In this document: in pieces, positions 9,917-21,565 of the stretch | Layout: each line of letters starts with the position of its first letter | Numbering within the stretch: the first letter of the stretch is position 1 | Assembly: GCF_054482595.1 (NCBI RefSeq) | Contig: NZ_CM137008.1 | DNA: 64,000 nt | Strand: one strand, 5' to 3' | Made by a program: the position numbers and the translations under genes | Notes under the pieces: model-generated | The model's database searches: none | Told to the model about the DNA's origin: nothing | What the model saw: only the letters and a program-made list of their open reading frames with translations

Positions 9917-10125
9917 ATGCCGGATACGGCCTACGGTTCGGCACAGACTTGTAGGCCTGATAAGACGCGTCAAGCGTCGCATCAGGCATTGTGCGCCAAC
10001 TGCCGGATGCGGCGTGAACGCCTTATCCGGCCTACGGTTCGGCACAAACCTGTAGGCATGATAAGACGCGTTAAGCGTCGCATCAGGCATTATGCGCCGA
10101 CTGCCGGATGCTGCCTACGAAGGGC
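9917..10125. repeat. cluster of REP/BIME palindromic repeats (two near-identical units)
   Basis: Tandem duplication of ...GCCTGATAAGACGCG(T/TT)AAGCGTCGCATCAGGCATT...GCCGGATGCGGCGTGAACGCCTTATCCGGCCTACG... Confidence 0.8.
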
Positions 10126-16691: not shown

Positions 16692-17723
16692 ATGTCTGCA
16701 TTTACCCCGGCAAGTGAAGTCTTGCTGCGTCACAGTGATGATTTCGAACAAAGCCGTATTCTGTTTGCCGGAGACTTACAGGATGACCTGCCCGCGCGTT
16801 TAGATACCGCGACCAGCCGTGCTCATACCCAGCAATTCCATCACTGGCAGGTGTTAAGCCGCCAGATGGGTGATAACGCCCGTTTTAGTCTGGTCGCCAC
16901 GGCGGATGACGTCGCAGATTGCGATACGCTGATTTACTACTGGCCGAAGAACAAACCGGAAGCCCAGTTCCAGTTGATGAATTTACTTTCTCTGCTGCCG
17001 GTGGGCACGGATATTTTTGTCGTTGGCGAGAACCGCAGCGGCGTGCGCAGCGCAGAGCAGATACTGGCAGATTATGCGCCGTTGAATAAAGTCGACAGCG
17101 CCCGTCGCTGTGGCCTCTATTTTGGTCGTCTGGAAAAACAGCCGGTATTTGATGCCGATAAATTCTGGGGCGAATACAGCGTCGATGGCCTGACGGTCAA
17201 AACGCTGCCTGGCGTGTTTAGCCGCGACGGTCTGGATGTCGGTAGCCAGTTGCTGCTCTCGACGTTAACCCCGCACACGAAAGGTAAAGTGCTGGATGTC
17301 GGCTGTGGCGCGGGCGTGCTTTCGGTTGCCTTTGCGCGCCATTCGCCGAAAATTCGTCTCACTCTGTGCGATGTCTCTGCCCCGGCGGTAGAAGCCAGCC
17401 GCGCAACACTTGCGGCCAACGGTGTTGAAGGTGAAGTCTTTGCCAGCAACGTCTTTTCCGAGGTGAAAGGTCGTTTTGATATGATCATCTCCAACCCGCC
17501 GTTCCACGATGGGATGCAAACCAGCCTGGATGCGGCGCAAACGCTGATTCGCGGCGCGGTGCGTCATCTTAATAGCGGCGGCGAGCTGCGAATTGTAGCG
17601 AACGCCTTCCTGCCTTACCCGGACGTGCTGGATGAGACATTTGGCTTCCATGAAGTTATCGCGCAAACCGGGCGCTTCAAGGTGTATCGCGCCATTATGA
17701 CCCGCCAGGCGAAGAAAGGTTAA
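16692..17723 (+). CDS. rsmC: 16S rRNA (guanine1207-N2)-methyltransferase
   Basis: 343-aa ORF with SAM-binding motif [11 protein letters not shown]. Confidence 0.9.
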
Positions 17724-17732
17724 TTATCTCGC

Positions 17733-17900
<168 letters not shown>

Positions 17901-18022: not shown

Positions 18023-18109
18023 GCGAAGGTGGCGGAATTGGTAGACGCGCTAGCTTCAGGTGTTAGTGTCCTTACGGACGTGGGGGTTCAAGTCCCCCCC
18101 CTCGCACCA
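18023..18109 (+). tRNA. leuQ: tRNA-Leu (CAG), copy 1
   Basis: 87-nt GCGAAGGTGGCGGAATTGGTAGACGCG...CTTCAGG...GGTTCAAGTCCCCCCCCTCGCACCA with encoded CCA and long variable arm. Confidence 0.95.
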
Positions 18110-18137
18110 AAAACCACGTTGATATTGCTCGCACTGG

Positions 18138-18224
18138 GCGAAGGTGGCGGAATTGGTAGACGCGCTAGCTTCAGGTGTTAGTGTTCTTACGGACGTGGGG
18201 GTTCAAGTCCCCCCCCTCGCACCA
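18138..18224 (+). tRNA. leuP: tRNA-Leu (CAG), copy 2 (one substitution in variable arm)
   Basis: Identical to copy 1 except GTGTTCTTAC for GTGTCCTTAC at 18185. Confidence 0.95.
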
Positions 18225-18258
18225 AACGAGGCGATATCAAAAAAAGTAAGATGACTGT

Positions 18259-18345
18259 GCGAAGGTGGCGGAATTGGTAGACGCGCTAGCTTCAGGTGTT
18301 AGTGTCCTTACGGACGTGGGGGTTCAAGTCCCCCCCCTCGCACCA
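18259..18345 (+). tRNA. leuV: tRNA-Leu (CAG), copy 3
   Basis: 87-nt copy identical to copy 1. Confidence 0.95.
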
Positions 18346-18383
18346 ATTATCTTTACTTCCTTTCTTGTTTCTTCCCTGTTATA

Positions 18384-18620
18384 TCATCCCTGATTCAAAT
18401 TCATTATCATCAGCATGATGCCAGCAATAAGCGCCAGGCACGATGGTAGCAAAATGTAATGCCGCAACTGTTTGTGATACAGCATCATCGGCGTCAATAC
18501 TAATCCCATCAGAATGACAATCCGCCACTGATCCGGCGATAAATCCGCATACATCAGCCCTGCAATCAGCAATCCCGGCAGCAACACTCCCCAGCCACTG
18601 CCCAGCGTACGTTGCAACAT
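18384..18620 (-). CDS. yjjZ: small inner-membrane protein YjjZ
   Basis: MLQRTLGSGWGVLLPGLLIAGLMYADLSPDQWRIVILMGLVL... (78 aa from internal Met). Confidence 0.75.
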   Translation of the reverse strand: MLQRTLGSGWGVLLPGLLIAGLMYADLSPDQWRIVILMGLVLTPMMLYHKQLRHYILLPSCLALIAGIMLMIMNLNQG

Positions 18621-18637
18621 GGTTTCATCTCTTTCAT

Positions 18638-18658
18638 TGATAATGATAACCAATATCA
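18638..18658. promoter_or_regulatory. Fur-box-like site upstream of yjjZ
   Basis: TGATAATGATAACCAATATCA resembles GATAATGATAATCATTATC. Confidence 0.55.
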
Positions 18659-18727
18659 TATGATAATTTTTATCATTTGCAAGCCAGAGAAATCCCTTGC
18701 TATCGGGTAAACCTATCGCTAGGATTA

Positions 18728-18746
18728 GCAATCATTATCATTTAGA
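18728..18746. promoter_or_regulatory. Fur box upstream of fhuF
   Basis: GCAATCATTATCATTTAGA, about 15 bp upstream of the fhuF start. Confidence 0.6.
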
Positions 18747-18760
18747 TTACTATCCCGATT

Positions 18761-19549
18761 ATGGCCTATCGTTCCGCACCGCTCTATGAAGATGTCATCT
18801 GGCGAACACATCTCCAGCCGCAGGATGCTGGGCTTGCACAAGCCGTGCGGGCGACGATCGCAAAACATCGTGAACATTTGCTGGAGTTTATCCGCCTGGA
18901 TGAACCTGCCCCACTTAACGCCATGACGCTGGCGCAATGGTCATCACCGAATGTGCTAAGTTCTCTGCTGGCGGTCTATTCCGATCATATCTATCGCAAC
19001 CAACCAACGATGATCCGCGAGAACAAACCGCTGATCTCACTATGGGCACAATGGTATATCGGCCTGATGGTGCCACCATTAATGCTGGCGCTACTGACGC
19101 AGGAAAAAGCATTAGATGTGTCGCCGGAACATTTCCATGCTGAGTTTCACGAAACCGGACGCGTCGCCTGTTTCTGGGTCGATGTGTGTGAAGATAAAAA
19201 CGCAACACCACATTCGCCGCAGCAGCGAATGGAAACGTTAATCAGCCAGGCGCTGGTTCCGGTTGTGCAAGCACTAGAAGCGACCGGAGAGATCAACGGC
19301 AAACTTATCTGGAGTAATACCGGTTATTTGATCAACTGGTATCTCACTGAGATGAAGCAACTGCTCGGCGAGGCTACTGTTGAATCGCTGCGCCATGCCC
19401 TCTTTTTTGAGAAAACGCTCACGAACGGTGAAGATAATCCACTCTGGCGTACCGTGGTACTGCGCGACGGCCTGCTGGTGCGCCGCACTTGCTGCCAGCG
19501 TTATCGCTTACCGGATGTGCAGCAATGTGGCGATTGTACGCTGAAATGA
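18761..19549 (+). CDS. fhuF: ferric-siderophore reductase FhuF (2Fe-2S)
   Basis: 262-aa ORF ending CCQRYRLPDVQQCGDCTLK (C-C-x10-C-x2-C). Confidence 0.9.
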   Translation: MAYRSAPLYEDVIWRTHLQPQDAGLAQAVRATIAKHREHLLEFIRLDEPAPLNAMTLAQWSSPNVLSSLLAVYSDHIYRNQPTMIRENKPLISLWAQWYIGLMVPPLMLALLTQEKALDVSPEHFHAEFHETGRVACFWVDVCEDKNATPHSPQQRMETLISQALVPVVQALEATGEINGKLIWSNTGYLINWYLTEMKQLLGEATVESLRHALFFEKTLTNGEDNPLWRTVVLRDGLLVRRTCCQRYRLPDVQQCGDCTLK

Positions 19550-20947: not shown

Positions 20948-21565
20948 ATTTCCTCCACATCCACTGTCTAAAAATTATGATGGTTTATTCAGGACATTCA
21001 TTCCTTAAATGTTTCCAGCAAATTAATAGATTAAGCGAATAAATTATCCTTAGCATTCACTTTCATATCAGCATACTCCTGCTGCACAACAACTCCACTG
21101 CATGTGTCAGAAGGTTAGCATCAAATGATAACCTGGTGAAATAGCCTGGAGACATTTAAAATATCTACATTAAGTTGTTAGAAATACTTAATGAAAAACA
21201 GAAATTTTATTTATTTAATTTATAATTAAGTGATATCCCTTCCAGCAGATTGCGGAATCACACAATCAATATTTATTCAATAAAATCTGATAGTTTTAAC
21301 TTGTTAACATTAAAAAACGCGCCCAGTCACCTATTATCCTGATTCGTAAAGGCTAAATAATGAATTCATTATAGTGATAATATTCATGTGATAATTTGTT
21401 TGCGGCGAGAGATAATTCGCTTTTTATCACCGAGCTTCTCCCGATAACCAGGATTAATCAGCGCAATTTTGATCTTAACCTACCGCAAAACAACCGTGCT
21501 TCATGATACAAATGGATTCTCATTATCTGAACAATACGCAGCACGTCTATGACAAAGGGCGAGTT

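Follow-up and report, generated by a model that had tools for sequence, protein, structure and literature searches.

Two unequal Fur operator clusters between the divergent yjjZ and fhuF genes of Escherichia coli

The 140-bp region that separates the divergent genes yjjZ and fhuF of Escherichia coli very probably carries two back-to-back sigma-70 promoters, each of them repressed by the iron-sensing regulator Fur (ferric uptake regulator), in its iron-loaded form, through an operator cluster of its own by blocking of RNA polymerase; we put the probability of this reading at roughly 0.93. The scores, positions and conservation of the sites were computed here from a window of 64,000 nucleotides (contig NZ_CM137008.1 of assembly GCF_054482595.1); binding, the order of affinities, the transcription starts and Fur-dependent expression have been published for the identical sites of strain K-12. 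That RNA polymerase would be occluded sterically is suggested by the position of the sites, and the independence of the two clusters is suggested by synteny. The yjjZ/fhuF region is a published Fur-controlled region and is already known, and the only addition made here is a cross-genus comparison, by which the high-affinity site called “fhuF1” is assigned to yjjZ.

The window runs in reversed orientation relative to E. coli K-12 MG1655, and in its local order fhuF is followed by bglJ and yjjQ. YjjZ matches Pfam family PF07256 (E = 1e-36), and FhuF contains the domains PF06276 (FhuF) and PF11575 (FhuF_C, 2Fe-2S). A segment of 421 bases around the yjjZ/fhuF region (18380-18800) is 100% identical to the corresponding segment of several complete genomes, and is present in 5,424 of 5,426 genomes; in the segment search, three of 5,429 matching places were on records labelled as plasmids, and some genomes yielded up to three copies. 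An Rfam scan found no RNA family within the intergenic region, the only matches nearby being the three tRNA-Leu genes listed with the other features in Table 1. Elsewhere, two matches to naRNA4, the REP-element-derived nucleoid-associated RNA, were obtained, one between rsmC and the tRNA-Leu genes (17802-17884) and the other inside yjjI, matching both strands (9954-10032), and a terminator-like hairpin is present at 18522-18539, inside the yjjZ coding sequence. At about 37500-43000, the “immigration control” segment of K-12 (hsdRMS-mrr-mcrBC-yjiT) has been replaced in this strain by a 3′-5′ exonuclease gene, a type I restriction-enzyme remnant, symE with the SymR antisense RNA (39968-40044), a GmrSD-family endonuclease and a DUF262 remnant, and because of this replacement the K-12 Fur site upstream of yjiT is absent here.

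Table 1. Features of the yjjZ/fhuF region and its surroundings, in window coordinates.
Feature	Position	Strand	Description	Basis
rsmC	16692-17723	+		
Three tRNA-Leu(CAG) genes	18023-18345	+		Rfam matches
yjjZ coding sequence	18384-18620	-	78 aa, DUF1435, hydrophobic small protein	Open reading frame; RefSeq annotation of a 100% identical genome
yjjZ/fhuF divergent intergenic region	18621-18760		140 bp between the ATG codons (A of yjjZ at 18620, minus strand; ATG of fhuF at 18761)	
yjjZ 5′ UTR	18621-18647	-	Start at 18647	K-12 4,605,777 (PMC10301672) via base-for-base alignment with MG1655
High-affinity Fur DNase I footprint “fhuF1”	18632-18684		4603763-4603815	Chen et al. 2007, Table 3, mapped (PMC2189734)
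Fur site F1a, ATTGATAATGATAACCAAT	18636-18654		Centre 18645 (+3 of yjjZ)	16.7 bits, own matrix
Fur site F1b, AATGATAACCAATATCATA	18642-18660		Centre 18651 (-4 of yjjZ)	22.2 bits, own matrix
yjjZ sigma-70 promoter	18655-18682	-	-35 TTGCAA (18682-18677), 16-nt spacer, -10 TATGAT (18660-18655)	Promoter scan
Fur site F1c, TATGATAATTTTTATCATT	18659-18677		Centre 18668 (-21 of yjjZ), fills the -35/-10 spacer	21.7 bits, own matrix
Homology junction (site of GGDEF-gene absence in Escherichia)	18680-18695		Homology to the yjjZ side as far as 18679, to the fhuF side from 18696 onward	blastn-short
fhuF promoter	18697-18731	+	-35 TTGCTA (18697-18702), 17-nt spacer, -10 TAGGAT (18720-18725), starts 18730/18731	Hexamers read from the sequence
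Low-affinity Fur DNase I footprint “fhuF2”	18714-18767		4603680-4603733	Chen et al. 2007, Table 3, mapped (PMC2189734)
Fur site F2a, ATTAGCAATCATTATCATT	18724-18742		Centre 18733 (+4 of fhuF)	13.2 bits, own matrix
Fur site F2b, AATCATTATCATTTAGATT	18730-18748		Centre 18739 (+10 of fhuF), 6 bp from F2a	6.3 bits, own matrix
fhuF coding sequence	18761-19549	+	262 aa, ferric-siderophore reductase, 2Fe-2S C-terminal motif	Open reading frame; RefSeq; Pfam

Fur sites were scored with a symmetric 19-bp log-odds matrix trained on 20 K-12 sites or footprinted regions, from which fhuF was left out. The training sites were taken from the K-12 coordinates of Chen et al. 2007 (PMC2189734), most of them having been footprinted or gel-shifted and three only predicted; centred on the published coordinates (9-1-9), the matrix has the consensus AATGATAATCATTATCATT, and the leave-one-out scores of the training sites have a median of 20.8 bits and extremes of 8.7 and 27.6 bits. 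A second matrix was grown from the classical 19-mer as a seed, and converged 3 bp off the centres published by Chen et al. 2007. In a scan of the entire 64 kb, the four best matches were all located within the 140-bp region, at 22.2, 21.7, 16.7 and 13.2 bits (F1b, F1c, F1a and F2a, respectively), and in the classical 19-mer alignment the best match of the window was GATAATGATAACCAATATC at 18639-18657, with 22.6 bits. These four sites score within the range of the validated ones, and the fifth, F2b, scores below it. Although fhuF was left out of training, the bits obtained for the strong cluster (16.7, 22.2 and 21.7) and for the weak one (13.2 and 6.3) reproduce the values of Chen et al. 2007, who predicted 16.1, 20.8 and 22.3 bits for the former, with the strongest site (old coordinate 4603779) mapping to 18668, and 14.6 and 9.3 bits for the latter (PMC2189734).

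According to dinucleotide shuffles of the whole window, the numbers of sites expected per 64 kb at or above thresholds of 13, 16 and 20 bits are 0.72, 0.18 and 0.015, respectively, as against 4, 3 and 2 sites observed, every one of them inside the 140 bp. When the AT-rich 140 bp (33% G+C) were shuffled on their own, the probability of a maximum of at least 20 bits was 0.001, as was that of two or more sites of at least 13 bits. It follows from the shuffle counts that the strong-cluster site is far beyond chance. The best site of the weak cluster is marginal on score alone, with a local P of 0.03 and 0.72 such sites expected per 64 kb, and the support for it comes from its near-invariance across four genera and from the published footprint.

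Several lesser matches were recorded outside the intergenic region. The fifth-best match of the window to the Fur matrix, ATTCAAATTCATTATCATC at 18393-18411 (12.6 bits), is situated in the last codons of yjjZ and is probably a by-product of Met, Ile and Asn codons; a weaker match occurs at a similar place in Klebsiella grimontii. Another sequence, CAAATGGATTCTCATTATC at 21509-21527, scores 14.1 bits in the classical alignment, a value expected by chance about once per window, versus 6.9 bits with the 9-1-9 matrix; it is situated about 48 bp upstream of yjjP in the AT-rich divergent region between yjjQ and yjjP, a region that is H-NS-bound according to a published table. A matrix match at 52552 was dismissed, as it is inside a pentapeptide-repeat gene.

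The preliminary description of this DNA, made from the letters alone, had proposed a pair of Fur-box-like sites flanking the short divergent intergenic region. Its two strings are indeed both inside the 140 bp, one near each start codon: TGATAATGATAACCAATATCA at 18638-18658 begins 18 bp from the yjjZ start codon and is contained within the combined span of F1a and F1b (18636-18660), and GCAATCATTATCATTTAGA at 18728-18746 ends 14 bp before the fhuF start codon and spans F2a and F2b. Scoring against a Fur matrix, which it had named as a check, gave 22.2 and 13.2 bits, to be compared with the 8.7-27.6 bits of validated sites, and from the matrix scores and the shuffles it follows that neither place falls below a Fur threshold. 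Comparison with published operator footprints, its other suggestion, likewise came out in its favour, both strings being covered by the DNase I footprints obtained on K-12 by Chen et al. 2007 (PMC2189734). The proposed control of both fhuF and yjjZ by Fur agrees with the identity of the sites to the footprinted K-12 sites and with the fact that both genes belong to the core Fur regulon. The picture of two paired sites stood as far as the two places are concerned, and gave way to one of five overlapping sites in two unequal clusters, strong at yjjZ and weak at fhuF; F1c, one of the two strongest sites, had been overlooked. As a calibration point, a true operator was recognized here from sequence alone and without tools, which carries little weight as a discovery.

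On the yjjZ side, the promoter hexamers found by our scan are identical to those given in two published sources (PMC3946193 and PMC10301672). The three strong sites together (18636-18677) extend over the spacer and the -10 hexamer and past the start site as far as +12; with the footprint added, the yjjZ promoter is covered from the -35 hexamer to about +16. The centres of F1a and F1b are 6 bp apart (18645 and 18651), as are those of F2a and F2b in the other cluster (18733 and 18739). Overlapping Fur sites were described as obeying a rule of 3- and 6-bp spacing (Chen et al. 2007; PMC2189734), and overlap at 6-bp spacing, as would be expected if two Fur dimers bind opposite faces of the double helix, was found in both clusters. 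Of 5,426 E. coli genomes, 3,738 carry exactly the 53-bp sequence of the high-affinity footprint, and another 1,646 carry it with one or two bases changed.

On the fhuF side, the start sites are those in the legend of Figure 5 of Chen et al. 2007 (4603717/4603716, mapped; PMC2189734), and the hexamers, which we read from the sequence, were predicted differently by one genome-wide survey (PMC3946193). The weak sites (18724-18748) span -6 to +19 of fhuF, and the footprint extends from about -16 to +38, so that at both genes, with the published K-12 starts mapped by alignment, the site centres overlap core promoter elements or the start. The -10 hexamer carries a single-nucleotide difference at 18722, being TAGGAT here versus TATGAT (T for G) in K-12 MG1655; this position is inside both the low-affinity footprint and a stretch resembling an OxyR site, and the difference could alter the strength of the fhuF promoter. 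Both alleles are common in E. coli: the 66 bp of fhuF promoter and leader (18695-18760) are identical in 2,843 genomes, and 2,178 genomes, including K-12, differ by one to three bases. In other genera, the hexamer reads TAGGAT, TAGTAT or TATTAT.

Overall, the region differs from that of MG1655 by three single bases (18622, 18689 and 18722), all of which are outside the Fur sites, and all five sites are base-for-base identical to their K-12 counterparts, with identical scores. Published coordinates were transferred by subtracting the old K-12 coordinate from 18761 + 4603686, and the mapping was checked against both start codons. In K-12, purified Fur gave a gel shift and DNase I footprints over one high-affinity and one low-affinity region (PMC2189734); the two footprints are discrete, and the unprotected gap between them maps to 18685-18713. 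A Fur ChIP-exo peak of MG1655 under iron-replete conditions, assigned to yjjZ (4603779-4603794), maps to 18653-18668, and in nine strains deleted for fur the log2 fold change ranged over 5.5-11.3 for yjjZ and over 2.0-8.5 for fhuF (Gao et al. 2023, supplement). Both genes are included in the 36-gene core Fur pan-regulon of these nine strains, with yjjZ listed first (Gao et al. 2023). The yjjZ promoter is active in vitro and in Δfur cells, and yields no start-site reads in the wild type (PMC10301672); yjjZ also belongs to the Fur regulon of strain CFT073, and in Salmonella iron represses a yjjZ promoter reporter and the gene has been assigned to the Fur regulon. Control of fhuF by Fur has served as the read-out of the Fur titration assay since the 1990s (PMC2189734).

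It should be mentioned that in the MG1655 sheet of Gao et al. 2023 the label b4367 fhuF is given to a peak at 4593337-4593349, some 10 kb distant from that gene, and the true intergenic peak is labelled yjjZ only; in the W3110 sheet, one peak is assigned to both yjjZ and fhuF. The fhuF row at 4593337 looks like a labelling inconsistency or table error, or else an unrelated peak, and was left out of account here.

A scan of species-representative genomes for FhuF returned 12 loci from Escherichia, Citrobacter, Salmonella and Klebsiella, 11 of which carry yjjZ. In five Escherichia species, including E. coli, E. albertii and E. whittamii, yjjZ and fhuF adjoin each other divergently, with 140 bp between them; the yjjZ start codon is about 1.4 kb away from fhuF in four Citrobacter genomes, Salmonella enterica subsp. 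arizonae and K. grimontii. A gene for a 354-aa membrane GGDEF diguanylate cyclase is found between the two in Citrobacter, Salmonella and Klebsiella, and it is absent from all five Escherichia sampled. In S. arizonae (locus L023, positions 1316-2380) the GGDEF gene has the same orientation as fhuF, and equivalents are present in loci L020, L021, L022, L025 and L027; its S. Typhimurium counterpart is presumably STM4551. Its start codon is about 200 bp from the strong yjjZ-side Fur cluster, and for this reason the gene might be influenced by Fur; a literature search on Fur control of the Salmonella GGDEF gene found nothing relevant.

Each cluster keeps its distance from the gene that it adjoins. 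Strong sites are present at -25 and -31 from the yjjZ ATG in 11 of 11 yjjZ loci, and a -48 site in 9 of 11, the two in which it does not reach 8 bits being C. koseri and one Citrobacter genome; outside Escherichia, the -48 site is weaker (10-15 bits versus 21.7 bits). On the fhuF side, each of the 12 loci has a site of at least 9.9 bits between -28 and -37, counted from the fhuF ATG. Along the yjjZ-side alignment, the Fur sites contribute 31 invariant columns out of 42, and the stretch beyond the -35 hexamer none out of 18. In the fhuF-side alignment (nine taxa from four genera), 18 of the 19 columns of 18730-18748 are invariant; the promoter spacer has no such column among its 17, and the remainder of the leader has 3 among 12. 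CTTGC in the -35 region and four of the six -10 positions are likewise the same in all nine taxa.

Thus, the strong cluster stays with yjjZ and the weak cluster with fhuF across genera, which argues for two independent operators, although this argument is one from synteny. Among the genera sampled, the clusters are neighbours only in Escherichia, because the GGDEF gene is missing there. The parsimonious reading is that this gene would have been lost in the Escherichia lineage, since Klebsiella, the most distant genus sampled, possesses it.

The proximity of the two clusters, which are only 65-88 bp apart from centre to centre, brings up the possibility that they form one cooperative unit, with Fur on the strong cluster helping to load the weak fhuF operator by polymerization or looping, and with repression of fhuF in Escherichia needing both; Fur footprints were reported to extend at higher concentration, and both regions were named as fhuF sites by Chen et al. 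2007 (PMC2189734). We find this arrangement unlikely. In Citrobacter, Salmonella and Klebsiella the fhuF operator keeps its position at a distance of about 1.4 kb from the strong cluster, and it follows from this separation that it can do without that cluster; moreover, the footprints are discrete, with their unprotected gap at 18685-18713, and the gap sequence is not conserved, as judged from the lack of any invariant column in the spacer (0 of 17). A different suggestion comes from oxidative-stress regulation: fhuF is listed in reviews as repressed by oxidized OxyR, and the 37 bp at 18702-18738, which span the fhuF -10 hexamer and the start site, agree with 13 of the 20 specified positions of the four-element consensus for the OxyR tetramer and are among the 11 best of 64,000 positions, by what is a crude consensus count and a weak match. 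A conserved CTATCG...CTATCG repeat at 18700-18718 would also be in keeping with control of fhuF mainly by OxyR acting over the -10 hexamer and start, the weak Fur-like site being secondary. Nevertheless, OxyR would add to Fur control rather than replace it, fhuF is derepressed in Δfur cells of nine out of nine strains and its site is footprinted by Fur, and the repeat, which is kept in Escherichia, Citrobacter and Salmonella, is absent in Klebsiella, where the Fur site is conserved, so that a leading role for OxyR appears very improbable.

Least credible is the view that the motifs are no functional Fur operators at all, being instead AT-rich sequence that resembles a promoter by chance, or places where a nucleoid protein, for instance H-NS, binds. 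The low G+C content of the region, the overlap of Fur-like -10 and -35 hexamers with the sites, and a weak-site score for which chance would give about 0.7 matches per 64 kb could be cited on its behalf, but it would have to accommodate two sites of about 22 bits where 0.015 are expected, footprinting of the identical K-12 sequences with Fur (PMC2189734), a ChIP-exo peak together with Δfur derepression in nine strains (Gao et al. 2023), and sites that are near-invariant across four genera with diverging flanks. In addition, the table of Shimada (PMC3946193) marks no H-NS here, unlike in the neighbouring yjjP/yjjQ region.

Under the preferred reading of two promoters with an operator cluster each, iron-loaded Fur bound to the three overlapping strong sites would block the yjjZ promoter and repress it tightly; from the cover of this promoter by strong sites, yjjZ would be expected to be silent in iron-replete cells and strongly derepressed without Fur. 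Fur bound to the two weak sites at the fhuF start would repress that gene with lower affinity and in a manner more easily relieved. The published expression data, in which yjjZ is derepressed more than fhuF, are consistent with tight occlusion of the former promoter and looser occlusion of the latter. On the evidence of the start site and of synteny, the high-affinity “fhuF1” site is most fittingly called the yjjZ operator, an assignment that agrees with the place of yjjZ at the head of the core Fur-regulon table and the lesser derepression of fhuF, which would have the weak operator only. It is conceivable, if rather doubtful, that loss of the GGDEF gene, by putting the strong yjjZ operator 62-85 bp from the fhuF start (-62 to -85), created a coupling specific to Escherichia that changes the occupancy of the weak operator and the iron threshold of fhuF; if true, a deletion would here have rewired regulation on a small scale. 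From the same position, the strong cluster might contribute to repression of fhuF in Escherichia, which we likewise consider unlikely.

Among known systems, the closest is the same locus of E. coli K-12, with its fhuF1 and fhuF2 regions and the identical five sites (Chen, Lewis, Schneider, Storz et al. 2007, Nucleic Acids Res 35:6762; PMC2189734); that paper names both regions after fhuF, whereas here the high-affinity one is assigned to yjjZ. The operators of Citrobacter, Salmonella and Klebsiella match those of Escherichia in their distances from each start codon, but in these genera the GGDEF gene separates yjjZ from fhuF. In the fepA-fes and fepD-entS regions of E. coli, the two promoters are controlled simultaneously by Fur sites that overlap them or are located in the space between them. 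These are likewise short divergent iron-regulated regions with overlapping Fur sites at 6-bp spacing, and both are among the footprinted regions (PMC2189734). A shared bidirectional operator of the fepA-fes type was considered for yjjZ/fhuF and ruled out by the two discrete clusters and footprints, by the non-conserved gap at 18685-18713 and by the separation of the clusters by a gene in other genera. Unlike fepA-fes and fepD-entS, the yjjZ and fhuF promoters have a cluster each, of unequal strength, and the two clusters are physically separable, being about 1.4 kb apart in related genera.
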